This document shows positions 3,851-51,180 of a stretch of DNA of 51,993 nt, in pieces (the stretch's first letter is position 1; each line of letters starts with the position of its first letter). The stretch is from a virus, in the IMG/VR virus record IMGVR_UViG_3300004625_000001; one strand, written 5' to 3'. The notes beneath the pieces were generated by a model. The model was not told the origin of the DNA, did not search any database, and saw nothing but the letters and a program-made list of their open reading frames with translations. Position numbers and translations under genes: made by a program.

Positions 3851-4822
3851 TCAGCCTCCATTGAGCGGAGACAGCGCGGCAAGGCGGCGCGACTTGATCG
3901 CCAAGGCTGCTTCGATCATGTCGGCATGACCTTCGCTTTCCAGCACGGCCGGCGCATCGAAATCGGTCCAGATTTCCTCGACGCTTGCTTCGTCCTTTGC
4001 GCCGGCGAGGGCGGTCTCGATCTCGTCAAGGAAGTCACCGAGCGAAAACTCGCTTGCAGGTTCGTCCGTCGGCTGCTCGGGCTCGACTCTGGCCTCGATC
4101 GTCTTGGATGGAGGAGCGGGCGGCTTTGGAGGCTTGGGCGGCGTCGGCTTGCCCTCGCCCGATTCAGCGGGCGGGGTGATATCGCGCATCTCTTCGGCGT
4201 CGGCGATCTCGCGGACTTCGAACTCGTCGCGGATACCGCCGAGCACGTCGCCGAACAGTTCGCGAAGGCAATAGCCGGCCGCGCGCCACGCTAGCATGCG
4301 CTGCGGGAACCGATACCAAGGGCTGTCGTTCGGCTTCTCCTCGTTCTTCTTGTCCCACTTGTTCCACTTCACGACCGTGGCCTTGGTCTGCCACAGCCCG
4401 GCGCGTTCGGCGTCGGCCTGGCTGAACTCGACCCGCTTTTCTTCGCCGGTATCGAGCCGCTTTGCCTCGCAGAAGCCGACCATCTTGCCGTTGCGCTCTT
4501 CGCAGCCGGTCCGGAGATAGGCGACCTTGCCAGACATGCGGACGACATTGATCAGACCATCGCCGTAGAGGGCGGGCCGACCGTTGATCACGGTAAAGCT
4601 GCGAAGGCTGACCATCGGCTTGAGGCCGAGCTCAGCGCCGGACATAATGGCGACTGCGACTGCGGCTGCTGCATCATCGCCCTCCAGCTTGCCGATCAGT
4701 GCCGACGGTGCCAGGCCGGAGGCGCACACAGCTCGTGCGATGCGCAGCGTCTCCTCGAACGTCTGAGGGACGATGGCGAGGACATTGCCGCCGCCGGTCA
4801 GGGTTGGAACATGGCTGTTCAT
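3851..4822 (-). CDS. recT: RecT-family single-strand annealing protein
   Basis: RecT-like core (GLKPMVSLRSFTVINGRPALYGDG..., PWYRFPQRMLAWRAAGYCLRELFGDVLGG) plus an acidic/proline-rich tail. Confidence 0.88.
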   Translation of the reverse strand: MNSHVPTLTGGGNVLAIVPQTFEETLRIARAVCASGLAPSALIGKLEGDDAAAAVAVAIMSGAELGLKPMVSLRSFTVINGRPALYGDGLINVVRMSGKVAYLRTGCEERNGKMVGFCEAKRLDTGEEKRVEFSQADAERAGLWQTKATVVKWNKWDKKNEEKPNDSPWYRFPQRMLAWRAAGYCLRELFGDVLGGIRDEFEVREIADAEEMRDITPPAESGEGKPTPPKPPKPPAPPSKTIEARVEPEQPTDEPASEFSLGDFLDEIETALAGAKDEASVEEIWTDFDAPAVLESEGHADMIEAALAIKSRRLAALSPLNGG

Positions 4823-7853: not shown

Positions 7854-8152
7854 GCAAGGAAGTGTTGAGTTTTATCATCGTGGCGCCATTCGAGCAGCGC
7901 GCAGCTGTGGCGTCGGCGAAGGAGCGGCTGGAGAACTACCTGTCTCACCGCTTCCCGGGGTACGACTTCAAGGTCGGACCGTTCGCGCCAGTTGGTGAAG
8001 AGGGCGCTTTCACGGTGTTGCCGATCATGAATTTCGTCGGCGACGACGGGAAGAGCTACATGTGCGAACCGCCGTCGCGCTGGCTGCTGCAGGATATTGG
8101 CAACGCTTGCAATGAATTCGATCTTAAGGGTAGGCGGAGTTTCGCCGCTTAG
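7850..8152 (+). CDS. Hypothetical protein
   Basis: Start MSKEVLSF at 7850 overlaps the upstream stop (ATGA). The 3' end overlaps the cI stop by 4 nt (convergent). Confidence 0.55.
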   Translation: MSKEVLSFIIVAPFEQRAAVASAKERLENYLSHRFPGYDFKVGPFAPVGEEGAFTVLPIMNFVGDDGKSYMCEPPSRWLLQDIGNACNEFDLKGRRSFAA

Positions 8153-8859
8153 AACCCAGGCATCGTATTGAGGACCATACGGACGATCCCGATAATTTCG
8201 ACCATTACCCCGTCGTCAGCGTCGAACTGGCGCTGCACGACGATCGGCTTGTGCCTTGGATTGCTCGATCGAGGATGGAACTCCGTCCTGTCCTCATAGA
8301 TCTCTATTTGCTTCACCGACCATTCCCGCATGTGGCCGCCGTCGCGGGTCCGCTGCACGACGACGACCATTCCATCGCGAAGCACGACGCGGTGGGCAAC
8401 ATCCTCATAAGCGGTGGCGACGATCGTGTCACCTGGCAGGATGGGGCGAGGCCGAAGCTCGTTCATGCTGTCGCCTTCGACGTCGAAGGTAAGCTGGCGG
8501 GCGTTTGGAAACTTCTCGTCGCGCGGAACCGTGATCTCTTCGGGCTCTGATTGATCGAACTCGTCGACCTCGCGGAAGAGGCTTGCGGAGACGATGCCGG
8601 CCTTCCTCGCTTGAACCCACTTTTCCGATGAAGGGGACACTTCAGACTGAGGTTCAAGCTCGATACCATCTCGAAGCCAGACGCGCGACCTGCCGATCGC
8701 ATCAGCCAACTTGTCGATCACATTCCCTCGCGGGTTGTCTGTGTCGCCCCTCAGATATTTGTTGATGCTGTCGTAAGGGACACCGGAACGCTTTGACAGA
8801 TCGGCTTTGTTCAAGCCGAGCGCGTCCATTTCCTGCTGAAGTCTTTCCCACCATTTCAT
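8149..8859 (-). CDS. cI: CI-like repressor: XRE HTH + S24 (LexA-type) autopeptidase
   Basis: N-terminal HTH LNKADLSKRSGVPYDSINKYLRG. C-terminal GDSM serine motif and downstream catalytic Lys region (WSVKQIE). Divergent from the cro-like gene. Confidence 0.9.
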   Translation of the reverse strand: MKWWERLQQEMDALGLNKADLSKRSGVPYDSINKYLRGDTDNPRGNVIDKLADAIGRSRVWLRDGIELEPQSEVSPSSEKWVQARKAGIVSASLFREVDEFDQSEPEEITVPRDEKFPNARQLTFDVEGDSMNELRPRPILPGDTIVATAYEDVAHRVVLRDGMVVVVQRTRDGGHMREWSVKQIEIYEDRTEFHPRSSNPRHKPIVVQRQFDADDGVMVEIIGIVRMVLNTMPGF

Positions 8860-11600: not shown

Positions 11601-12818
11601 ATGAGCATTCATCAGCCGACACTCTTCGAGGGCTCGAAGCGTCTTGTCTACGACGAAGCGGTCGAGATGACGCTACAGTCAATGCAGGTCTACGGACCGG
11701 CACACGATCATTGGGTGTTCGCCTTCTCTGGCGGTAAAGACAGCACAGCAACGTTGACGGTCATCATCCACCTGATCGACGCCGGCCGGCTCGCTGCGCC
11801 GAAGTCTATCAGCGTTCTCTACGCTGATACGCGTATGGAACTGCCCCCGCTTGCAATCGCAGCTGAGCGCCTTCTCGATCGGCTCCGCACGCGCGGCATC
11901 CATTGCGAGACCGTGTGCGCACCAATGGATCAGCGTTTCCTCGTCTACATGCTTGGTCGTGGTGTTCCACCGCCGAACAACAACACGTTCCGCTGGTGCA
12001 CTCGCCAGATCAAGGTTGATCCAATGACCGCGGCGCTGGAGCGTCGGATCAACGAGCTCGACGGCTCGATCCTGATGATCACTGGCGTGCGCCAGGGCGA
12101 GAGCGCCATCCGTGATGGCCGCATCGCCATGTCATGCGGCAAGGACGGGGCGGAGTGCGGCCAAGGCTGGTATCAACAGGTTGTTCCGGAAGCGAAAGGT
12201 ATTCGCGGCCGCATCGCCACCTTGGCGCCGATCCTTCACTGGCGCGTCTGCAACGTCTTCGACTGGCTCAAGATTTATGCCCGGATGGAAGAATATGGCG
12301 CTTGGGATACGTCGGCTGTCGTCGACGCCTATGGTGGCGACGAGGCGCAGGAGATCAATGCGAGGACCGGGTGCAACGGATGTCCACTCGCTACCCGCGA
12401 TCTTGGGCTTGAGACCGTCGTCCGCGTTCCGTTCTGGTCGTACATCTCGCCTCTCTCCGGTCTGAAGCCGCTCTATCGGGAACTGCGCGAGCCGCGAAAC
12501 AGACTCAAGAAGACAGGAATCGAAGAGAACGGCGACATTGCCACGGCCAAGAACAAGCAGCGGATGGGCCCGTTGACATTCGAAGCTCGTCTGATGGCGC
12601 TTGGTCGCATCCTGTCCATTCAGTCAGAGATCAAACTCAATGCCAATCGCCTCGTCCGACCGCACGTCGATCTGATCAATGCCGAGGAAGAGTGCCGCAT
12701 CCGCGAGCTGGTCTCGCTCCGCACCTGGCCAAACGGCTGGGACGGCGACGAGCCGACCGCCGACACTCCAATGGATGCTGTCTTTGCAGACGGCTCCGTA
12801 CAGCCACTGTTGATGTGA
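11601..12818 (+). CDS. DndC-like PP-loop ATP pyrophosphatase (PAPS-reductase superfamily)
   Basis: PP-loop FSGGKDST. DndC-type block LGRGVPPPNNNTFRWCTRQIKVDP and ITGVRQGES. Cys clusters SCGKDGAECGQGW and TGCNGCP. GGGAG RBS. Confidence 0.8.
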   Translation: MSIHQPTLFEGSKRLVYDEAVEMTLQSMQVYGPAHDHWVFAFSGGKDSTATLTVIIHLIDAGRLAAPKSISVLYADTRMELPPLAIAAERLLDRLRTRGIHCETVCAPMDQRFLVYMLGRGVPPPNNNTFRWCTRQIKVDPMTAALERRINELDGSILMITGVRQGESAIRDGRIAMSCGKDGAECGQGWYQQVVPEAKGIRGRIATLAPILHWRVCNVFDWLKIYARMEEYGAWDTSAVVDAYGGDEAQEINARTGCNGCPLATRDLGLETVVRVPFWSYISPLSGLKPLYRELREPRNRLKKTGIEENGDIATAKNKQRMGPLTFEARLMALGRILSIQSEIKLNANRLVRPHVDLINAEEECRIRELVSLRTWPNGWDGDEPTADTPMDAVFADGSVQPLLM

Positions 12819-12855
12819 GGCTCTGATGAAACGCCCGACGATGCATTCAGACAGC

Positions 12856-13695
12856 CTAAGCTGCACGTTGCCTGGGCCTCGGTCTCCTGCGGCGCGGCTC
12901 GACAACACGCAATCGTTCAATCAAACGCTGATTGAAGTCGACTCGGTCGATCCCAAAGTGCGCACGCCGGTGACAGTCAGGGCACACCCCGATGACGTTG
13001 CAGGGGCTGTCAGGCCCCCCATCGGAAAGACGGTGCACATGGTGGCATTCGATATAAAGACTGCCGTTAGGGCGTCGAAATGGCCCTGGTTCCCTACAGT
13101 TTTCACAAATTCCGCCGGCGCGCGCCAAGACATAGTCCCGTACGTCGCGGCTCCTAGCGAAAACGCTTCTCTGTGCTGGAACACGTTCCGGTGTGGGCTC
13201 TGCAGCTTCGAAAGCTCGACGCCTGAGCTCTTCGATATCTTCTTCGTCGTTCGGGAGGACGGGTTCAACGTGGTCGAGGTTGCCTGCGACATCTCCTGCG
13301 CGGCGCAATTCGAAGACGATCGCATCGCGGATGTTGTTGTATTTGTCTGGCGCTGGTTCGTAGTGGTGGCGCTCATAGACCATTTCTCCATCATAGCGAA
13401 GCCCGCCTCGGACCGACGTGAAGAGATGGATAGCCTCACCATTTTGCCAGGAATCGACGATAGCTCGATTTCCGGACCTCATTTCCATCGGGCCAACCTG
13501 CCCCTGACCAAAATACTCGAAGACGCCATCGTCTCTCCACCGATCGGCGTATCCGTGCCGCCGTCCTTCCTCACCGCTAACAATGAAGATGATGGGAGTG
13601 TCAGCAGGCGTGATGATGCCGCTGCGCTGTTGCCCGTTATAGACCCCGTGGATATCGGCTACGCGGTTGTAAACTTGGCCAAGCATGAACGGCAT
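12856..13695 (-). CDS. SRA(YDG)-like domain + HNH endonuclease; putative modification-dependent (type IV) restriction enzyme
   Basis: N-terminal SGIITPADTPIIFIVSGEEGRRHGYADRWRDDGVFEYFGQGQVG...SGNRAI...GEAIHLF fits the SRA pattern. C-terminal CENC...ECHHVHRLSDGGPDSPCNVIGVCPDCHRRAH is a canonical HNH. It is on the opposite strand to the surrounding operon. Confidence 0.7.
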   Translation of the reverse strand: MPFMLGQVYNRVADIHGVYNGQQRSGIITPADTPIIFIVSGEEGRRHGYADRWRDDGVFEYFGQGQVGPMEMRSGNRAIVDSWQNGEAIHLFTSVRGGLRYDGEMVYERHHYEPAPDKYNNIRDAIVFELRRAGDVAGNLDHVEPVLPNDEEDIEELRRRAFEAAEPTPERVPAQRSVFARSRDVRDYVLARAGGICENCREPGPFRRPNGSLYIECHHVHRLSDGGPDSPCNVIGVCPDCHRRAHFGIDRVDFNQRLIERLRVVEPRRRRPRPRQRAA

Positions 13696-13763
13696 ACGAA
13701 CCTCCCTCTCGTTTGGTTCTCCCTTGTAGGTTGTTCTCCTTCCTTAAGAGTTAAGGAGGCTGC

Positions 13764-13964
13764 ATGACCGAACCCTCCGAGATGATCGCCTGGCTCGACC
13801 GCCGCATCGCCTCCGCCATGACCTGGCTGGACGACCACGGCAAAGGCTCAAAGAAGCCTCGCCCAGACCACGAAATCGAAACCAAGGAATACGACATCGC
13901 CCGCTTTGAGGAGATCAAGGCGGCGTATGTGAAGGCATTGGCGAAGAGGGAGCAGGCGGCATGA
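13764..13964 (+). CDS. Hypothetical small protein
   Basis: TAAGGAGG RBS; 66 aa; ATGA-coupled to the methyltransferase remnant. Confidence 0.6.
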   Translation: MTEPSEMIAWLDRRIASAMTWLDDHGKGSKKPRPDHEIETKEYDIARFEEIKAAYVKALAKREQAA

Positions 13965-18576: not shown

Positions 18577-19128
18577 CTACTGATCTATCCGGTCTTTATG
18601 ACGCCATGTAATTGGCCAAATTGTCCCTCCGCCAATATCTTTGCCGTGGCTGATAACGTGGAGGAAAATTGAGTTGCATAGCTGATCTATTTTTTTCGCC
18701 GTTGTAAGCGCGCGAAGGCGAGTGATTGGCCACTCTGTTTTCTGCTTGTGGCTCTTGAAATTTATGATGATCGCGTCAGCGTTCGTTTTTGACGATGCCG
18801 GATCCACGTACAGGCCATGAATGATTTGCTCACGCTCGTTCTTCATCGCCAGTACCTTGTCGATAAGGTCGATAAGGCCTTGCGTGCCCGGCGTCGTAGC
18901 ATGATCAGTTCTTAGGATGGACTTGAGTTTATCGCACCTCTGCTGAACCCCTTTGCTGTTGATGAAGGCGCCAATGTCCTCCCCAGCTGGATCCGAGGCC
19001 CAAAACAGCAAGTTGTCGATTTGGAATTCTAGTGCCGACCATTTCACCGCGACGGTCCCTATGGCCTCCAATAGCTTTGGGCCAGGGATCGAAACGAACT
19101 CTTCTTCTTTGCCGTGCTGTTTCGTCAC
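18577..19128 (-). CDS. HEPN-motif protein (putative RNase toxin/Abi effector)
   Basis: 183 aa; R-x4-H motif in NEREQIIHG; helical; AT-richer than neighbours. ATGA-coupled to the upstream 75-aa ORF. Confidence 0.5.
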   Translation of the reverse strand: MTKQHGKEEEFVSIPGPKLLEAIGTVAVKWSALEFQIDNLLFWASDPAGEDIGAFINSKGVQQRCDKLKSILRTDHATTPGTQGLIDLIDKVLAMKNEREQIIHGLYVDPASSKTNADAIIINFKSHKQKTEWPITRLRALTTAKKIDQLCNSIFLHVISHGKDIGGGTIWPITWRHKDRIDQ

Positions 19129-19352
19129 TTCGATCCGTACCGCTTTTCGAGGGCCGCGAGGTAGGACGAATAGCTGTCGATTAGCCGGAGGTGGAGTTGC
19201 TTCTGCTCGTCAATGAGCACCTGGTCTGGCCTGGTGTCTTCAACGTCCCTGATTACGAAGCGGTATTTGTCGATATAGTCGATCATCTCCTCTGCGTGTC
19301 GGATCACTTCCTCGTAGCGCCCACGCACATTCTCAAGTTGTTCAGCGTCCAT
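19125..19352 (-). CDS. Small acidic helical protein, partner of the HEPN-motif gene
   Basis: Start MDAEQLENV at 19352 has GGGAGG-N5. 75 aa. Confidence 0.5.
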   Translation of the reverse strand: MDAEQLENVRGRYEEVIRHAEEMIDYIDKYRFVIRDVEDTRPDQVLIDEQKQLHLRLIDSYSSYLAALEKRYGSK

Positions 19353-19374
19353 CCTGTCCTCCCAAGGTAAAGCA

Positions 19375-19923
19375 ATGCCCGCATTGAGTGAAAAACAGAA
19401 GCGGTTCGTCGCAGAGTATCTGATCGACCTCAATGCAACGCAAGCCGCAATTAGGGCGGGCTACAGCGCCAAGACCGCCCAACAGCAAGGCAGCCGCCTG
19501 TTGTCAAATGTTGTGGTGCAGGAAGAGCTCTCAAGGCAGCAGAGCAAGGTCGCTCAACGGCTCGAAATCACCAAAGAGCGTATCGTCGACGAGCTGGCAA
19601 AGATCGGCTTTGCCAACATGCTCGACTACATGCGGGCCGGTCCCGACGGCGATCCATATCTCGACTTCTCCGGATTGACGCGCGATCAGGCCGCAGCGCT
19701 TTCGGAGGTTACCGTCGAGGACTTCAAGGATGGGAGGGGCGAAGACGCCCGCGACGTTCGTCGGGTAAAGTTCAAGCTGCACGACAAGAAGGGCGCCTTG
19801 GTCGACCTCGCTAAGATGCTCGGCTTCATTGTCGAGAAGCACGAGCACACTGGTAAAGACGGCGCGCCGATACAGACCGAGACGAGAACATGGCGGGAAG
19901 TGCTGCGCAGCGAAAAGAGCTAG
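19375..19923 (+). CDS. terS: Terminase small subunit (Terminase_2/P27 type)
   Basis: LSEKQKRFVAEYLIDLNATQAAIRAGYSAKTAQQQGSRLL is the family signature. Confidence 0.9.
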   Translation: MPALSEKQKRFVAEYLIDLNATQAAIRAGYSAKTAQQQGSRLLSNVVVQEELSRQQSKVAQRLEITKERIVDELAKIGFANMLDYMRAGPDGDPYLDFSGLTRDQAAALSEVTVEDFKDGRGEDARDVRRVKFKLHDKKGALVDLAKMLGFIVEKHEHTGKDGAPIQTETRTWREVLRSEKS

Positions 19924-21332: not shown

Positions 21333-21482
21333 ATGGCCTGTGGACCTTGTGAAAAGCGTCGCCAGATGATCGCCGAAGCACGGAAGCAGGCCGGGGCTAA
21401 GGGCTTCCTCAAAGTGTTGCCGAAGGTCGCCAAAGACGTCGTGAAGAACCCGCCGAACATCAGGAAGAGCCGCAATGGGTGA
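21333..21482 (+). CDS. Possible 49-aa basic protein between terL and portal
   Basis: MACGPCEKRRQMIAEARKQAGAKGFLKVLPKVAKDVVKNPPNIRKSRNG; overlaps the portal start by 8 nt. Confidence 0.35.
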   Translation: MACGPCEKRRQMIAEARKQAGAKGFLKVLPKVAKDVVKNPPNIRKSRNG

Positions 21483-23310
21483 CGTTATCCAGCTTCGGGC
21501 GAATGACAGCCTGCGCTCGATGGTCGCCGGCCTCGGCGATCCCTTCCGAGACAAGATGGCTACGGCCTCGTATGGCCTGCAGTACATCGACGACTATCAG
21601 CTCGCCGCCATCTACAAGAGCAACTGGCTCGGCAAGAAGATCGTAAAAATCCCGGCCTTGGATGCTATCCGTAAGGGCAGGGACTGGCAGGCGGAGCAGG
21701 ACCAGATCGAGGCCATCGAGGCAGAGCAGAACCGGCTAGGCTTCTGGCACAAGCTGCTTGAGGTAAAGGTCAAGGCCCGGCTGTGGGGTGGCGCTGCGCT
21801 GTTCATCGGTACTGGCGAGCAGGATCTCATGCAGCCCCTGAATGTCGAACGGACCGGGAAGGGCGGAATCAAATACCTTACGGCGCTGTCGCGTCGCGAT
21901 GTCGCCGCCGGGCCGATCGATCAGAATGTATTGTCCGATTTCTACGGCAAGCCGTCATATTACGAGGTGACCGGCAACGCATCGATGATCCGCATCCACC
22001 CATCAAGGTTTGCCGTCTTCATCGGCGAGCCCCATGGAGACAACCTGCTGAACTTCGGCGTGAACGACGGTTGGGGCGACAGCATCATCGAGGCCGTTTA
22101 CTCGGCGATGAAAAATGCAGATGCGACGGCGGCGAACATTGCCAGCCTCGTCTTCGAGGCCAACGTCGACGTGTTCCGGATCCCGGATTTCATGAACGGC
22201 CTGGCCGACCCGGAATATAGGAGCCGGCTGCTTGAGCGGTTTTCGCTCGCTGCGACGGCGAAGGGTATCAACCGCGCGCTCGTCCTCGACAAGGAAGAGG
22301 AATACGAGCGTAAGACCATATCGTTCGCCACACTTCCGGAAGTCATGCAGTCGTTTCTGCAGATGGCAGCTGGTGCTGCCGATATCCCGGTGACACGGCT
22401 TCTCGGCCAGTCTCCGGCCGGCATGTCGGCGACCGGCGAATCCGACATGAACAACTATTACGATCGCGTGTCGTCTATCCAGACGCTGGAAGTGACGCCC
22501 GCGCTCTATCGCCTTGACGAGTGCCTGATCCGCTCTGCCCTCGGCAGCCGCCCCGACGAAGTCTTCTATGAGTGGTCACCGCTCAAGCAGATGACCGAGA
22601 AGGAGCAGGCTGAAATCGGCAAGTTGAACGCCGAGACGGCGAAGACGCTGGCCGATACGGGCATCTTCACCCCGGTCGAGCTGCGAACCGTCGTCACGAA
22701 CCAGCTTGTGGAATCGAGCTTCTATCCCGGTCTTGACCAGGCGGTGGCGGCAACTGATGCATCCGGCGAGTTTGACCTCGGTGGCGATGATGAGACCGAT
22801 GAACCGGAAGACCAGCAGCAGACGCGCCAGCGGGCCGCCGACGCTGCACCGCGCACGCTCTACATTCATCGTGACGTGGTGAACGCCGACGACATCAAGA
22901 AGTGGGCGAAGACTCAGGGCTTCGAGACCGTTCAGGACGATCTGCACGTCACCATCATCCACACTCGTACGCCGCTGGACTGGATCAGGGTCGGGAACGA
23001 CATCGAGTGGGCTGACAGCGGCAACACCATCAAGATCCTCGCCGGTGGCCCGCGCCTTATGGAGCAGTTCGGCGATGCGGTCGTGCTTCAGTTCGCAAGC
23101 TCGCGCCTGACCTGGCGTCATGAGGATATCAAGCGCCTCGGCGCCGACACGGATTATCCCGACTACCAGCCACACGTCACGATCTCGTGGCAGAAGCCGG
23201 AAGGAATGGACCTTTCGACGGTCGAGCCGTACCGCGGTGAGATCATCCTCGGGCCGGAAATCTTCCAAGAGGTCAATGACGACTGGAAGAGCAAGATCGT
23301 CGAGGCGTGA
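21475..23310 (+). CDS. Portal protein (DUF1073-like) fused to a C-terminal 2H-phosphoesterase domain
   Basis: Portal body is aa 1-~425. An acidic linker (GEFDLGGDDETDEPEDQQQ) follows. Aa 459-611 carry two H-V-T-I tetrads (LHVTIIH at H491, PHVTISW at H567). Confidence 0.85.
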   Translation: MGDVIQLRANDSLRSMVAGLGDPFRDKMATASYGLQYIDDYQLAAIYKSNWLGKKIVKIPALDAIRKGRDWQAEQDQIEAIEAEQNRLGFWHKLLEVKVKARLWGGAALFIGTGEQDLMQPLNVERTGKGGIKYLTALSRRDVAAGPIDQNVLSDFYGKPSYYEVTGNASMIRIHPSRFAVFIGEPHGDNLLNFGVNDGWGDSIIEAVYSAMKNADATAANIASLVFEANVDVFRIPDFMNGLADPEYRSRLLERFSLAATAKGINRALVLDKEEEYERKTISFATLPEVMQSFLQMAAGAADIPVTRLLGQSPAGMSATGESDMNNYYDRVSSIQTLEVTPALYRLDECLIRSALGSRPDEVFYEWSPLKQMTEKEQAEIGKLNAETAKTLADTGIFTPVELRTVVTNQLVESSFYPGLDQAVAATDASGEFDLGGDDETDEPEDQQQTRQRAADAAPRTLYIHRDVVNADDIKKWAKTQGFETVQDDLHVTIIHTRTPLDWIRVGNDIEWADSGNTIKILAGGPRLMEQFGDAVVLQFASSRLTWRHEDIKRLGADTDYPDYQPHVTISWQKPEGMDLSTVEPYRGEIILGPEIFQEVNDDWKSKIVEA

Positions 23311-24288: not shown

Positions 24289-24323
24289 GCCTGCTTTTGT
24301 GGTGCATATCGAAAAGGTTGGCA

Positions 24324-25931
24324 ATGCTTATCAAGACCGTTTCGACCGTTGTCACGACAGACAGCACCGGCAAGCCTATTGATGCAATCCCGGTTCGGAC
24401 AGCGAGCGCGGGCGAAACCGACGCTGCAGGGCGGCCTGTCGATATCATTCAGGTCACGGAAGACCCGAATGGCATTCCCGTCCGCGTTGTGGCGGGCAAG
24501 GCAGCCCAGAACAGCGCCGGTCAGTGGATAGACACCCTTCCAGTTCAGGGCGTTGTGGTTCCGCTTCCGGCCCTGCCTTTGGCGACAGGGGCTAAGGTCA
24601 TGGGCCTCGGCCATAGCTTCATTGGCCTCGGAACCGCGCAAACCTACACCGCAGGCCAGACGGCGACGAATGGTCATACCGGCTTCTATGAGAACGGCCG
24701 CACGGTCCTCTCATGGATCAAGGCAGCCGATGGCCGCTTCAACATCGACATGTTCGCCGAGTTGAACAGTCCGTTTTTCGCGCCGAGTTCCTTTGCGGCC
24801 TTCTCGGGCGCAATGGCCGGCAAGTCGGGCGATTGCCTCTTTCCTGTTCCCGGGCTTGAGGCGCAGTTCCCGGGCACGCTCGCGCGCACGGCCTATTCTC
24901 TCAGCCAGAAACCCGACATCGTCTATATCGACATAGGCTACAACGACATCGTCCGGGGTCGAAGCCTGGCGGCGATCCTTGCCGACTTCGATACGCAGGT
25001 GCAGCGCATTGTTGATGCCGGGGTCTACGTCGTCCTGCAGACGTTGAGTTGGACCAACACACTCGACGATCAGCCAGGCGTTGACGATCCGGCATGGCCT
25101 GGCATCCTCGACGGCATCAATGCGTGGATCGTCGCGCAGGCGGGACGCGAAGGCGTCGTGCTCTGCAATACGCTTTCGCTCGATGGACCGGCCTCGGGCA
25201 TCTCGCCGACCATGTTTGTCGATGGGCTTCACCCCAAGCCGGACCTGATGGCGAAGCGCTCCGATATTCTGCTGCCGATCCTGCAGGGAATGGTCTCAGC
25301 AGGCGAGACAAGGTCGCTCGATCCACTCGCCGCCTACAACATCTTCCCGCCCAAGGGCACACCGGGGATAGCCGGAACCAAGACCAACGTCACTGGTGAC
25401 GTTGCCACTGGCATGCGCCTGGTGCGCGGCACCGGCACCTCGACCTATGTCGCCAGCAAGGAAGTGGTGGCGACCGGCAACGAAAAACAAGTGATCACGA
25501 TCACGCCCGTCAACGACGCGGCTGCCGTTCATACCGTGACCTATGGCCTGCCGGCCAATCTCAGCCTGGCAACACTCGGCCTCGTCGCCGGCGACTGGCT
25601 CGAGATCCAGATCCCCGTCGAGCTGAACGACTGGGCGGGCTGGGATTACCTCGACAGCTCCATCCGTGGCCCGGTTCAGATCGGCAATACTGTCACGGTC
25701 ACCGGCGGCGGCTGGACGACCGGCAATTATATCGGTGGCCGCAATCGGTCGCTCATCTGCGGCTCGAAACTCTGGCTTCCGACCGGTCTGACGATGACGA
25801 ACATCAGGCTCGATAACCTGCTGATATTGAGGCACCTCTGCACGACTGGAGGAACCGGCGTCGCCAAGATCGGGGCGCCGATCATCCGCAAGATTGCAAG
25901 CCCGCGAACGGCCTGGCAGTTGGCGGCATAG
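24324..25931 (+). CDS. SGNH/GDSL-family hydrolase with repeat-bearing N-terminus
   Basis: Block I GLGHSF, block III DIGYNDI, block V VDGLHP. The N-terminus has four G-x-P-[IV]-D-x-I-P-V-like repeats. Start taken at MLIKTV. Confidence 0.75.
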   Translation: MLIKTVSTVVTTDSTGKPIDAIPVRTASAGETDAAGRPVDIIQVTEDPNGIPVRVVAGKAAQNSAGQWIDTLPVQGVVVPLPALPLATGAKVMGLGHSFIGLGTAQTYTAGQTATNGHTGFYENGRTVLSWIKAADGRFNIDMFAELNSPFFAPSSFAAFSGAMAGKSGDCLFPVPGLEAQFPGTLARTAYSLSQKPDIVYIDIGYNDIVRGRSLAAILADFDTQVQRIVDAGVYVVLQTLSWTNTLDDQPGVDDPAWPGILDGINAWIVAQAGREGVVLCNTLSLDGPASGISPTMFVDGLHPKPDLMAKRSDILLPILQGMVSAGETRSLDPLAAYNIFPPKGTPGIAGTKTNVTGDVATGMRLVRGTGTSTYVASKEVVATGNEKQVITITPVNDAAAVHTVTYGLPANLSLATLGLVAGDWLEIQIPVELNDWAGWDYLDSSIRGPVQIGNTVTVTGGGWTTGNYIGGRNRSLICGSKLWLPTGLTMTNIRLDNLLILRHLCTTGGTGVAKIGAPIIRKIASPRTAWQLAA

Positions 25932-25940
25932 GAGAATTCC

Positions 25941-27074
25941 ATGAATTTCACCGACGCTGTCACCATCGCGGGAACGCGACGGACCGACGACGGCTACCTT
26001 GTCGCCGAAGCGAAGGCAGTCCGGACCGGCATCCAGCTTTATACGGGCGATGAAGTCGGAAAGCCTGAGATGTCCGTCGTCAGGGTCTATCGCCCGCCGG
26101 AATCCGTCTTCGCCGATGCCAGCCTACAGAGCTTCACCCACGCACCGGTGACGATGGATCACCCGAAGGACGCCGTGACGGCCGAGAACTGGAAGGATCT
26201 GGCAGTCGGCGAGGTCAGCACGGCCGCCAAGCGGGACGGGGAGTGGGTTTATCTCCCGCTCATCCTGAAGGATGCAGCGGCAATCAAGGGCGTCGAGGGT
26301 GGCAAGCGCGAACTCTCCGCCGGCTACGTCTGCGAGCTCGTATGGGGCGACGGCGTCACTCCGGATGGCCAGCAGTACGACGCCCAGCAGACCAACATCA
26401 AGATCAACCACCTGGCCGTCGTCGATCGCGCTCGGGCTGGTTCAAAGGCTCGCATCGGTGACGGTGCGAATTGGGGCATCAGCCCTGTCACCCCTGATCA
26501 CAAACCTCAAGAGGAAAAGATCATGACCCTGAAGACGGTTACCGTCGATGGCATCCCGGTTGAAGTAACCGATCAGGGTGCCACGGTTATCGCAACGCTG
26601 CAGCAGCGGCTTGCGGATGCCCACTCCAAGATGGGCACGGCAGACGCCGCGCACCTCTCCGCAATCGCTGCAAAAGACAGCGAACTCGCCAAGAAGGATG
26701 CCGAAATCGACAGCCTGAAGGCCAAGGTGCTTTCGGATGCTGATATCGACAAGCGCGTCCAGGACCGCGCCGATCTGATCGCCATCGCCACCACCATCGC
26801 GAAGGACGTCAAGACAACCGGTCTTTCCGATGCGGCCATCCGCAAGGCGGTTGTCACTGCCAAGCTCGGCGATGCTGCCATTGCCGGCAAGGCTGACGCC
26901 TACATCGACGCTCGCTTCGACATCCTGGCAGACGAGGCGAAGAAGGCGATCGGAGCCGATCCGTTCGCGCGAGTTCTCTCCGACGGCATTCGCCCCAACG
27001 TCGACGTCCACGTCGCCGCGGACAAGGCATGGTCGGAGAGCGTCAATGACCTCAACGCCTGGCGCAACAAGTAA
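25941..27074 (+). CDS. DUF2213-type scaffold / prohead-core protein
   Basis: N-terminal DUF2213-like (HAPVTMDHP..., RELSAGY) and a coiled-coil C-terminal half. Position is before the capsid gene. Confidence 0.7.
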   Translation: MNFTDAVTIAGTRRTDDGYLVAEAKAVRTGIQLYTGDEVGKPEMSVVRVYRPPESVFADASLQSFTHAPVTMDHPKDAVTAENWKDLAVGEVSTAAKRDGEWVYLPLILKDAAAIKGVEGGKRELSAGYVCELVWGDGVTPDGQQYDAQQTNIKINHLAVVDRARAGSKARIGDGANWGISPVTPDHKPQEEKIMTLKTVTVDGIPVEVTDQGATVIATLQQRLADAHSKMGTADAAHLSAIAAKDSELAKKDAEIDSLKAKVLSDADIDKRVQDRADLIAIATTIAKDVKTTGLSDAAIRKAVVTAKLGDAAIAGKADAYIDARFDILADEAKKAIGADPFARVLSDGIRPNVDVHVAADKAWSESVNDLNAWRNK

Positions 27075-43771: not shown

Positions 43772-43887
43772 AACCGAAGATCCTTATGATCACCCGCGAG
43801 AACATGCTCGCGTCATTTGATTCCTGCAAGCCGCTGAATCCACCACGAAGCTTGCGCGAAACTTTCCCAAAATCGGAGACATCAACA

Positions 43888-44760
43888 ATGCCAGTCAATG
43901 ACACGGCGAACGAATTCTCGCGCTCTCTCGCCAAGGTGCTCGTCCACGAAGGCGGCTATAGCAACCATCCGGCGGATCCGGGCGGCGCCACGATGAAGGG
44001 CGTCACACAGCGCGTCTTCACCGAATGGCTGGCCGCCGATGGAAAGCCTTCGCGTGACGTCCGGACCATCACGGGTGCGGAAGTCGCGGCGATCTACCGC
44101 AAGCGCTACTGGGACGTCGCCAAACTCGACAAGCTGGCCCCGGGTGTCTCCTACGTCGTCTTCGACGGCAACGTGAACTCGGGCGTCTCCCAATCCATCA
44201 AGTGGCTCCAGCGCGCGTTGCAGGGGCTTGGGCTCTACCAGGGAGCGATCGACGGCATCATCGGGCAGGGGACGATCCTGGCGGCGGCTGGCGTCAACGA
44301 CAACGACATGTTGATCGCACGCATCATCGAGCGCCGAGAAGCTTTCCTCCGAGCTCTGAAGACCTTCAAGACCTTCGGGAAGGGCTGGATCAGCCGCATC
44401 AGAGACGTGAAGGCAGTGGGGCAGGCTTGGGCTACCGGATCAGTCGGCCCTGAAATCAGCTACAAACCGGGCGGTGAGGCCAAAGCATTCCTGTCCAGCG
44501 CGAAGGCAGCGCCAGCTCTTGCCGTAGCAGATGCTTCGACTGGCAGCGGTGTCGGCTCCGGCGGCATCGCTGTGACGCTCCAGCAGGTGCAGGATCAGCT
44601 TTCGCCCCTCAGTTACTCCAGCGAGCTTATCGGCAAGGTGGTTGCCGGCTTGATCATCGTGAGCGCTGTTTTGACGATCGGCGGCCTTGCCTATCGCTGG
44701 TACGCGAAGCGCAAAAAGGACCGGCTCAAAGATGCCCTCGATATCCCGGTGGCGTCATGA
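43888..44760 (+). CDS. GH108 N-acetylmuramidase endolysin with PG-binding domain and C-terminal membrane anchor
   Basis: VHEGGYSNHPADPGGATMKGVT (GH108) and LQGLGLYQGAIDGIIG (PG_binding_3-like). C-terminal TM LIGKVVAGLIIVSAVLTIGGLAY plus basic tail. ATG at 43888 has a GGAG RBS. Confidence 0.85.
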   Translation: MPVNDTANEFSRSLAKVLVHEGGYSNHPADPGGATMKGVTQRVFTEWLAADGKPSRDVRTITGAEVAAIYRKRYWDVAKLDKLAPGVSYVVFDGNVNSGVSQSIKWLQRALQGLGLYQGAIDGIIGQGTILAAAGVNDNDMLIARIIERREAFLRALKTFKTFGKGWISRIRDVKAVGQAWATGSVGPEISYKPGGEAKAFLSSAKAAPALAVADASTGSGVGSGGIAVTLQQVQDQLSPLSYSSELIGKVVAGLIIVSAVLTIGGLAYRWYAKRKKDRLKDALDIPVAS

Positions 44761-50130: not shown

Positions 50131-51180
50131 ATGACCAAGTCTCCAAAGTCAAAGCCGCTCCTGCAATCCGACAGGCCGCTTCGCTCGCGAGCGCGCAAGC
50201 CGCGAGATCCCGCGCAGCCAAATCTTCCCCTCGATCCCATGCCGGCGCGCATCGAGCCGTGTCTCGCTCTCCTGAAGCAGAAACCGCCTAAAGGGCAGCA
50301 ATGGGCCTTCGAGGTGAAGTGGGACGGCTACCGGATTGCGGTTCATATCGAGCCCAAGGGCGTTCGTATTCTGACGCGAGGCGGACACGACTGGACGCAC
50401 CGCTTCCCGGCGATTGCTGCTGAGGCGGCGCAGCTCGGGGCAGCAACGGCAATCATCGACGGTGAAGCCGTGGTGCTGGATGAGCGAGGCCGGTCGGATT
50501 TCAGCCAGTTGCAGCAGTCGCTCGGGGGCCGCGGCGGTAGGCTGAACTCCGGTGCATCCGTTCTGATGGCCTTCGACCTCCTGTATTTCGATGGTCACGA
50601 TCTCACGCAGACAGAGCTTTCAACCCGCCGGCATCTACTTGAAGGGCTGATCGCGCCAGGTAGGGAAAGTGCCATCCGGATATCGGAGGAGGTGGAGGCG
50701 GACGGCGAGCAGTTGCTGCGCCTAGCCTGCGAGCACGGGCTCGAAGGGATCATCGCCAAGGATCGCAACAGCGCCTATCGCTCTGGCCGGCTCGGCGACT
50801 GGCTTAAGGTCAAATGCATCCAAAGCGATAGCTTCATGATAGTCGGCTGGGAGCAATCGAGTGTCGCGCGAGGCCATGTTGGTTCTTTGCTCCTGGCTGC
50901 CTACAAAGGCAATGATCTGGTTTATGTCGGATCAGTTGGAACCGGCATCAAAGACAGCGAGGCATGGAAGCTTCGCGGCATGATGGAAAAGCTGACGGTC
51001 AAGAGGCCTCCCGTCGCTTATGATGGTTCCCGAAAGAACCTGACATGGCTCCAGCCAACGCTGATAGCGGAGGTCGAATATCGCGCATGGACCCATGACG
51101 GCAAGCTTCGCCATGCGTCTTACAAAGGCCTGCGGGAAAAGCAGGACAATGCCGAAGTCTTTGTAATCCAAAATAACTAA
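50131..51180 (+). CDS. ATP-dependent DNA ligase (LigD ligase-domain type)
   Basis: Motif I EVKWDGYR (KxDG), motif III-like LMAFDLLYFDG, motif IV GLEGIIAK and motif V DWLKVK. An OB domain follows. Confidence 0.88.
   Translation: MTKSPKSKPLLQSDRPLRSRARKPRDPAQPNLPLDPMPARIEPCLALLKQKPPKGQQWAFEVKWDGYRIAVHIEPKGVRILTRGGHDWTHRFPAIAAEAAQLGAATAIIDGEAVVLDERGRSDFSQLQQSLGGRGGRLNSGASVLMAFDLLYFDGHDLTQTELSTRRHLLEGLIAPGRESAIRISEEVEADGEQLLRLACEHGLEGIIAKDRNSAYRSGRLGDWLKVKCIQSDSFMIVGWEQSSVARGHVGSLLLAAYKGNDLVYVGSVGTGIKDSEAWKLRGMMEKLTVKRPPVAYDGSRKNLTWLQPTLIAEVEYRAWTHDGKLRHASYKGLREKQDNAEVFVIQNN

Follow-up and report, generated by a model that had tools for sequence, protein, structure and literature searches.

Acb1 of bacteriophage T4 is a 2H phosphodiesterase that acts on the signals of the cyclic oligonucleotide-based antiphage signaling system (CBASS); its residues H44 and T46 are catalytic, and a C-terminal lid closes over the ligand (Hobbs et al. 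2022, PMC9117128). Iyer, Burroughs, Anantharaman, and Aravind (2022, PMC9503650, section 3.4.5) described 2H-portal and 2H-MuF fusions, suggested that such domains are packaged into heads, injected, and counter oligonucleotide-based immune signaling, and read ADP-ribosyltransferase and Nudix fusions to head proteins in a similar way. Here we analyze a fusion of this kind in IMG/VR virus record IMGVR_UViG_3300004625_000001, a stretch of 51,993 nucleotides hereafter called the window, in which the portal gene at 21475 to 23310 carries, behind a portal body and an acidic linker, a C-terminal module that almost certainly has the Acb1-family 2H fold. We show that this module is an accessory cassette exchanged independently of its carrier, and we weigh its delivery to the next host inside the virion against its action late in the producing cell.

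The first-pass annotation described a 611-amino-acid (aa) portal open reading frame (ORF) at 21475 to 23310 in which a normal portal body is followed by an acidic linker and a discrete module with two HVTI tetrads, their histidines H491 and H567 lying 76 residues apart. All of this holds, with an ATG start and with boundaries at aa 1 to 429, 430 to 458, and 459 to 611.

21475 to 23310, plus strand: portal-Acb1 fusion ORF, ATG start, 611 aa plus stop, matched by PF06381 and PF23474
21475 to 22761, plus strand: portal body, aa 1 to 429 (DUF1073/Phage_portal_3/TIGR01555)
22762 to 22848, plus strand: acidic disordered linker, aa 430 to 458 (predicted local distance difference test [pLDDT] score below 50 at aa 430 to 457)
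22849 to 23307, plus strand: predicted Acb1-family 2H phosphodiesterase module, aa 459 to 611 (PF23474 at aa 460 to 606)
22945 to 22956, plus strand: first predicted catalytic tetrad, H491-V-T493-I, within LHVTIIH (His codon at 22945 to 22947), aligned with H44/T46 of T4 Acb1
23173 to 23184, plus strand: second predicted catalytic tetrad, H567-V-T569-I, within PHVTISW (His codon at 23173 to 23175), aligned with H113/T115 of T4 Acb1
23278 to 23307, plus strand: predicted C-terminal lid with W604, aligned with W147 and lid residues 145 to 152 of T4 Acb1

Phage_portal_3 (PF06381, formerly DUF1073) matches aa 41 to 390 (E = 1.3e-102), the NCBIfam model TIGR01555 matches aa 11 to 402 (294 bits; cutoff, 196), and the PHROG 146 "portal protein" profile spans aa 9 to aa 606. 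By Foldseek, the portal body of the AlphaFold model resembles the Pam3 portal 8hds_A (E = 1e-34, 51% identity) and likewise matches the portals of E217 and Pa193. Profile, portal fold, and the large terminase gene directly upstream all fit, and the N-terminal part is a phage portal protein. In the full-length AlphaFold model the final helix of the body stops at aa 429, and the linker that follows has 10 D/E against 2 K/R. Among homologues this linker is 25 to 41 aa long, rich in D/E, and weakly conserved (12 to 79% identity), and portals without the Acb1 module keep it as a C-terminal tail.

A fusion of two genes by a sequencing or assembly frameshift would produce the same layout, and some databases do list short "standalone" matches to the domain, such as P0002. 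That explanation is refuted, because the intact ORF recurs across contigs and homologues: the identical 611-aa ORF lies on 12 independent contigs, and the fusion is found in 32 cultured-phage records and in at least 113 of the best 150 representative clusters. We also considered the "standalone" Ensifer/Sinorhizobium relatives P0002 to P0004 as split versions of the gene. P0002 is an internal-start gene call, since it is identical in sequence to the C terminus of the 617-aa fusion P0196; contigs carrying P0002 or P0004 were sought and not found. A search of the window linker for an in-frame internal start that would yield free Acb1 found no ATG, and the GTG codons near the linker all fall inside the first strand of the Acb1 domain.

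The proposal that the module is a 2H phosphoesterase is supported and can be narrowed to the Acb1 family. On its own, aa 459 to 611 matched PF23474 with 131.8 bits (cutoff, 27; E = 1.9e-38) over model positions 1 to 143 of 144, while the LigT-type Pfam model 2_5_RNA_ligase2 stayed below threshold (15.1 bits; cutoff, 27). Sequence matches in the PDB were the Pam3 portal (8hds_A, aa 469 to 618; E = 2e-31) and FBB1 Acb1 (7t26; E = 1e-11). As the first-pass annotation had suggested, we compared an AlphaFold model of the domain (54 homologues; pLDDT, 94.4; predicted template-modeling [TM] score, 0.87) with Acb1 and LigT structures; it shows a 2H fold closest to Acb1. FBB1 Acb1 (7t26/7t27) gave the best Foldseek matches (TM score, 0.71 to 0.78; E = 1.5e-7), followed by the BCSR5 phosphodiesterase and then by LigT, plant CPDase, and Usb1 at TM scores of about 0.5, with a Foldseek probability of 1.0 to Acb1, LigT, CPDase, and Usb1. 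Judged on sequence, the Acb1 match together with the HVTI pair lies far beyond coincidence of short motifs and cannot be due to chance.

Conservation was counted over 54 homologous domains aligned to the window domain. H491 is kept in 53 of the 54 and T493 in 52; H567 is present in all 54, and position 569 is T in 49 and S in 4. At the position of W604, 37 of the 42 homologues with a residue there have W. To map residues, T4 gene 57B and FBB1 Acb1 were aligned with the window domain, and the key positions were taken from Hobbs et al. (2022, PMC9117128); the automatic three-way alignment misplaced the first strand, and its first 40 columns were re-read by eye. T4 H44/T46 align with H491/T493 and H113/T115 with H567/T569, F107 corresponds conservatively to Y561, and W147 with the lid corresponds to W604 and aa 602 to 611 (DDWKSKIVEA). 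Y12 corresponds to Y463, an equivalence read by eye through GLYVAAKF/TLYIHRDV and less certain than the others. Because profile, structure, residue map, and near-invariant catalytic residues agree, we infer that the module truly belongs to the Acb1 family and that purifying selection maintains its catalysis. It is likely to be an active cyclic-oligonucleotide phosphodiesterase that serves counter-defense.

The module comes and goes while the portal stays nearly the same. P0113 has a portal body 95 to 96% identical to that of the window, lacks the module, and ends at 453 aa after the acidic tail; five further close relatives likewise end after the acidic tail without the module. At the DNA level the window and P0113 differ here by one clean in-frame indel of ~474 bp, which starts in the linker, reaches as far as the last two codons, and leaves the GAG-GCG-TGA-TG junction with MuF intact. 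Over 54 fusion homologues, identity to the window in the body and in the Acb1 domain is uncorrelated (r = 0.01): for P0105 the body is 85% and the domain 52% identical, and for Ensifer proteins the body is 55 to 57% and the domain 72 to 75% identical. The module is an accessory and swappable cassette whose exchange does not depend on the carrier protein.

This behavior bears on the idea that the module has a structural or packaging role in the head, as a spacer or a DNA-organizing plug above the crown, with its catalytic motifs as relics. The place of the module, at the portal crown, is one that barrels or internal cores occupy in other phages, and 12 copies would take up ~200 kDa of internal volume. 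Near-identical portals function without it, however, and it moves among unrelated carriers, its catalytic His and Thr are almost invariant, and the Pam3 virion shows no ordered density for the domain. We regard a purely structural role as very improbable.

Carriers were surveyed in the best 150 representative clusters, sorted by architecture. Portal-Acb1 fusions make up at least 113 of the 150, of which 28 have further domains. Nine clusters join Acb1 to an XkdF-type S78_2 prohead protease, often in the order ChaB-Acb1-protease, three join it to DUF2213, and 25 are fragments or have unrecognized N-terminal regions. Among the fusions scanned with Pfam, no terminase, major capsid, or tail protein was recognizable as a partner. 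The Acb1-DUF2213 fusions include P0290, P0339, and one at locus L008, whose head genes are in the same order as those of the window; there the portal is 428 aa long without Acb1, and Acb1 sits on the N terminus of the DUF2213 gene, two genes downstream of the portal. An Acb1-like domain was also seen in the "prohead protease" genes of Roseobacter phage DSS3P8, Ruegeria phage vB_RpoS-V10, and Edwardsiella phage vB_EpM_ZHS (H123, H124, and H126), and the protease-linked form therefore exists in culturable phages.

Other enzymes accompany the module in some fusions. A PF03496 exoenzyme-family ADP-ribosyltransferase follows Acb1 in eight proteins (P0108, P0251, P0259, P0260, P0267, P0273, P0286, and P0307) and a Zeta toxin in P0222 and P0312, and in P0225 the portal and Acb1 are separated by a pyridine-nucleotide oxidoreductase. 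P0144 (aa ~460 to 515) and P0165 (aa ~445 to 500) have an extra module of ~55 aa after the acidic linker and in front of Acb1, helical by eye and flanked on both sides by an (A)N-D-A-A repeat; this motif looks like a junction for inserting modules.

The first-pass annotation had taken a virion-tethered 2H enzyme to be new, and in this it was mistaken: the fusion is common, it is annotated by Pfam, RefSeq, and UniRef, and it was described by Iyer et al. (2022, PMC9503650). A survey of DUF1073 portals for the same C-terminal fusion, which that annotation had proposed, found it recurring widely, in cultured phages and in representative clusters. By tblastn, the full-length fusion is present in 33 cultured-phage records, and the Acb1 domain stands under a portal annotation in 32. 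Carriers include Rhizobium phages RHEph04, RHEph05, and RHEph06 and many RHph isolates, Pseudomonas phages phiPSA1, MR15, psageB2, and psageK9, several Synechococcus phages, Pam3, Aminobacter phage Erebus, and Sinorhizobium phage HMSP1-Susan. Nearly all of the best 120 homologues in a large protein collection have PF06381 plus PF23474, and a profile search of 1.84 billion representatives returned 3,563 clusters at E ≤ 0.001 and 1,270 at E ≤ 1e-30. RefSeq and UniRef name many homologues "anti-CBASS protein Acb1 family protein." No NCBIfam Acb1 model matches the fusion protein, for which TIGR01555 (portal body) is the sole match, so the RefSeq name does not come from NCBIfam and presumably derives from Pfam. 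In GenBank phage records these proteins are only "portal" or "head protein," and the antidefense module is missed. Hobbs et al. (2022, PMC9117128) do not mention fusions, nor does the Pam3 structure paper (PMC9942802) mention an enzyme domain. The architecture and the packaged-and-injected hypothesis are thus already on record; what is added here is the cassette-like behavior and the shuffling among carriers, which sharpen the question of delivery versus late action.

The first-pass annotation placed about 12 copies of the enzyme at the DNA exit channel of every virion. This location is imprecise: the portal C terminus forms the crown or barrel and points toward the capsid interior (PMC9942802; PMC11456595). 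Since the portal is dodecameric with its C terminus inward, ~12 Acb1 domains would lie on acidic tethers inside the capsid. The other carriers fit this position. Pa193 gp24, a DUF2213 homologue, is bound on the inner capsid surface and is detected in virions (PMC11456595), and in the window and in relatives the module is joined to proteins built into the capsid interior, namely the portal (at its C terminus), DUF2213, and the S78_2 prohead protease. That the module is accessory, is shuffled among head-assembly carriers, and has effector co-cargo supports encapsidation as a selected property. The proposal that the enzyme is loaded into the virion by fusion is reasonable and is strengthened by this comparative evidence; encapsidation itself we hold to be probable, with somewhat less assurance than enzymatic activity.

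In the explanation that we favor, the enzyme would cleave CBASS-type 3′-5′ cyclic di- and trinucleotides by metal-independent acid-base catalysis, like T4 and FBB1 Acb1. Assembly of the dodecameric portal with its C terminus inward would enclose ~12 copies per prohead in what becomes a DNA-filled capsid. At the third and weakest step, proteolysis at head maturation or ejection would free the module from its tether, and the freed module, at least partly unfolded, would exit with the DNA, giving the next host an anti-signaling enzyme ahead of all phage gene expression. Alt-type ADP-ribosyltransferase or Zeta-toxin domains would be co-cargo in sister phages. An encapsidated anti-CBASS phosphodiesterase that is packaged, released, and delivered is the best explanation that we can offer, with a chance of being right that is a little below even; release from the capsid and delivery to the next host we put a little lower still, and hold tentatively.

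Several observations weigh against this chain, at the level of substrate, release, and timing, and the searched literature contains no experimental study of any portal-Acb1 fusion. With regard to substrate, two ligand contacts of T4 Acb1, one of them among its nucleobase-stacking aromatics (Y12, W74, F107, and W147), differ in the sequence alignment: W74 corresponds to L528, beside a nearly invariant, clade-specific GGPR insertion, and E141, which contacts adenine N6, corresponds to Q598, with E599 adjoining. The range of substrates may thus not be the same as for T4 Acb1, and, from sequence, that of the whole portal-fused clade might be shifted. The same two losses would suit a general 2H enzyme acting on RNA or nucleotide ends (a 2′,3′-cyclic phosphodiesterase, a 2′-5′ phosphodiesterase, or end healing in RNA repair) or on another class of signal, such as type III CRISPR cyclic oligoadenylates or cyclic mononucleotides. 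Such an activity would also account for the subthreshold 2_5_RNA_ligase2 match, the weak LigT_PEase matches in homologues, the standalone relatives in PHROG 755 (labeled "RNA ligase"), and the presence of LigT, CPDase, and Usb1 among the Foldseek matches. Acb1 is nevertheless clearly the best match (131.8 versus 15.1 bits; TM score, 0.71 to 0.78 versus ~0.5 for LigT), and the lid with W604 is conserved, as are Y463 and Y561. No RNA ligase or polynucleotide kinase partner was recognized in the window, where the only ligase is an ATP-dependent DNA ligase 27 kb away, and T4 Acb1 does not cleave cyclic tetraadenylate (cA4; Hobbs et al. 2022, PMC9117128). We consider this range of substrates improbable.

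Release is the harder difficulty. Unless it is cut free, a domain tethered to the portal must remain behind in the capsid at ejection. No motif in the linker that might be cut by a protease is conserved across homologues. The nearly invariant D456-A-A-P-R, which directly precedes the domain, was considered as a protease site and rejected: a PRTLY(V/I) start, often with DA, also opens the domain in ChaB-, protease-, and DUF2213-linked forms, even at the N terminus of P0339, and because it begins the domain in all architectures, DAAPR is part of the Acb1 domain. A canonical prohead protease is lacking in this phage; its DUF2213 protein owes the "protease" label to PHROG, and the Pa193 authors regard gp24, the DUF2213 protein there, as a scaffold (PMC11456595). 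The portal channel of Pam3 narrows to 24 Å (PMC9942802), and a 17-kDa domain in its folded state would not fit through it. The Pam3 virion model includes only 442 of 621 portal residues and the Acb1 domain lies outside the built part, so the domain is flexible or absent in that virion. We found no peptide-level proteomics of the Pam3 portal, and the companion genomics paper gives no peptide coverage.

Timing raises a different question, since a 2026 preprint (PMC12991175) reports that CBASS fires late in infection, when the fusion protein then being synthesized would far exceed 12 imported copies in number. The same enzyme could thus act late in the producing cell, with packaging incidental or merely removing the enzyme afterwards. 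Portal-Acb1 would be made with the head genes, in at least 12 copies per progeny particle, and would destroy the cytoplasmic signal as CBASS fires; small substrates could also enter empty proheads, and the fusion would couple antidote to trigger in time and stoichiometry. According to the preprint, CBASS is switched on just after prohead formation, by prohead proteases, and escape mutations fall in capsid and scaffold genes (PMC12991175). In related phages Acb1 sits directly on S78_2 prohead proteases and on the protease- or scaffold-like DUF2213. For release from the portal, neither a cleavage site nor a canonical protease is apparent, and the modeled flexible tether would keep the active site accessible on unassembled portal.

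A separate late gene could give the timing alone, however, and the sampled fusions are only on head-built proteins, never on the adjacent terminase. The frequent co-fusion of Alt-like ADP-ribosyltransferase or Zeta toxin also fits delivery to a new host better. We give late action a real but minority chance. A more specific form of it, in which Acb1 is attached to head-assembly proteins because prohead assembly or protease activity switches CBASS on, we judge rather unlikely; the enzyme would then appear with the alarm in time, in fixed proportion, and perhaps in place. Delivery in the virion and late action in the producing cell are compatible with each other and not exclusive.

Proof of packaging and delivery would make the module a clear example of virion preloading with an enzyme against nucleotide-based immunity, at ~12 copies per particle, and cultured and structurally characterized phages bear the fusion (among them Pam3, RHEph04 to RHEph06, and phiPSA1). 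Should the module act in the producing cell only, it would tie counter-defense directly to the step of head assembly at which CBASS is triggered. Either outcome would explain why head proteins carry what is apparently the largest metagenomic block of Acb1-like domains, with 1,270 clusters at E ≤ 1e-30 and portal fusions in at least three quarters of the best 150.

The window represents a temperate myophage of the Pam3/E217 type, with a Rhizobium-type host. Its nearest named homologues are Rhizobium prophage proteins (P0080, 92% identical), and the 12 contigs with the identical portal include one of more than 1 Mb and one of 52,107 bp, close to the window in length. A CI-like repressor (HTH_3 plus Peptidase_S24) is encoded at 8149 to 8859 on the minus strand, a weak RecT-like match lies at 3851 to 4822 (minus strand), and a GH108 endolysin with a peptidoglycan-binding domain lies at 43786 to 44760 (plus strand); these three, together with the occurrence on a contig of more than 1 Mb, identify a temperate phage or prophage. 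No tRNA genes are present in the window. The head module runs in the order TerS, TerL, a 49-aa ORF, portal-Acb1, MuF, SGNH/GDSL lipase-like protein, DUF2213, cement, and major capsid.

19375 to 19923, plus strand: small terminase subunit, in the terminase pair directly upstream of the portal gene, matched by PF03592 and PF04466
19890 to 21329, plus strand: large terminase subunit, in the terminase pair matched by PF03592 and PF04466
23310 to 24122, plus strand: MuF-family minor head protein (PF04233, E = 4e-18; PHROG 324, "head morphogenesis")
25941 to 27074, plus strand: DUF2213/Pa193_gp24-family capsid-interior protein, putative scaffold (PF09979, E = 1e-54)

The MuF start overlaps the portal stop (TGATG) and is translationally coupled to it, with GTG at 23307 as an alternative start. 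MuF is called as a gene at locus L001, and the portal-MuF junction is the same in the module-less relative L005. The DUF2213 protein also matches PHROG 530, labeled "head maturation protease," with E = 2.5e-107. Between MuF and DUF2213 lies a gene for a 544-aa SGNH/GDSL lipase-like protein (24297 to 25931, plus strand; PF13472, E = 7e-11; PHROG 6102, "lipase"), which is present in L005 and not in the syntenic head module of L008; its product could be a second virion-associated enzyme or a moron. Directly upstream of the small terminase gene are two minus-strand ORFs, at 18577 to 19128 (183 aa) and 19125 to 19433 (102 aa). Both are called on related contigs, the latter as a shorter 75-aa product. 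The 183-aa ORF has no Pfam match and the 75-aa product no Pfam hit in the contig listing; position and orientation suggest that the pair is a moron.

Other genes of the window may also take part in defense or counter-defense. At one locus two long ORFs overlap on opposite strands, 12826 to 13767 (plus, 313 aa) and 12856 to 13695 (minus, 279 aa), and public gene calls at 12826 to 13767 conflict between L001 and L002. The plus-strand ORF has no Pfam match. The minus-strand ORF has an HNH endonuclease domain (E = 5e-9) and is called SRA_ScoMcrA plus HNH on an identical contig, i.e., an McrA-like modification-dependent nuclease. Of the two, the minus-strand ORF is probably the true gene and would be a defense gene carried by the prophage. 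Directly upstream, a 405-aa protein (11601 to 12818, plus strand) has a weak PAPS-reductase-type domain (E = 3e-7) and could serve DNA modification or nucleotide metabolism paired with the nuclease. Toward the right end of the window lies the ATP-dependent DNA ligase (50131 to 51180, plus strand; PF01068 plus PF04679). A phage DNA ligase has been discussed as an anti-Avs factor in a preprint (10.1101/2025.06.06.658234), and by analogy that of the window may be a second counter-defense candidate.

Among described systems, the window domain shares with Acb1 of T4 (gene 57B) and FBB1 (7t26/7t27; PMC9117128) the PF23474 family, the compact 2H fold, the HxT/HxT tetrad, equivalents of Y12, F107, and W147 by sequence alignment, and the C-terminal lid. 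It differs in that identity is only 24 to 32%, that the T4 and FBB1 proteins are free-standing (152 aa) whereas the window domain is a C-terminal portal module, and that W74 and E141 of T4 are replaced by Leu and Gln, the former beside the GGPR insertion. The next-best structural match after Acb1 is the BCSR5 phosphodiesterase of a Burkholderia phage (9q2y/9q2g; TM score, ~0.64; E = 1e-5), a phage 2H enzyme with open and closed lid states that is only 14 to 15% identical and free-standing at ~160 aa; the literature searches turned up no paper on it. T4 Alt offers a parallel for delivery, as an enzyme carried in the head and delivered with the DNA; Alt itself is directed to the prohead core, where the gp21 protease cuts it, and is not portal-fused. 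Alt/VIP2-family PF03496 domains stand behind Acb1 on sister portals, and Iyer et al. (2022, PMC9503650) treat this context as well. The closest counterpart with a structure is the Pam3 portal gp3 (8hds; Yang et al. 2023, PMC9942802), 47% identical over aa 6 to 608 by tblastn, which likewise consists of a portal body and an Acb1 domain and comes with the same type of minimal myophage head and tail gene set; Pam3 differs in its cyanobacterial host. The 2H-portal and 2H-MuF fusions and the other head-protein-effector fusions ("polyvalent" packaged proteins) of Iyer et al. (2022, PMC9503650), described in a survey-level computation that does not include the window protein, the indel polymorphism, the carrier shuffling, or the tether problem, belong to exactly this architecture class, and the logic proposed for them is the same.

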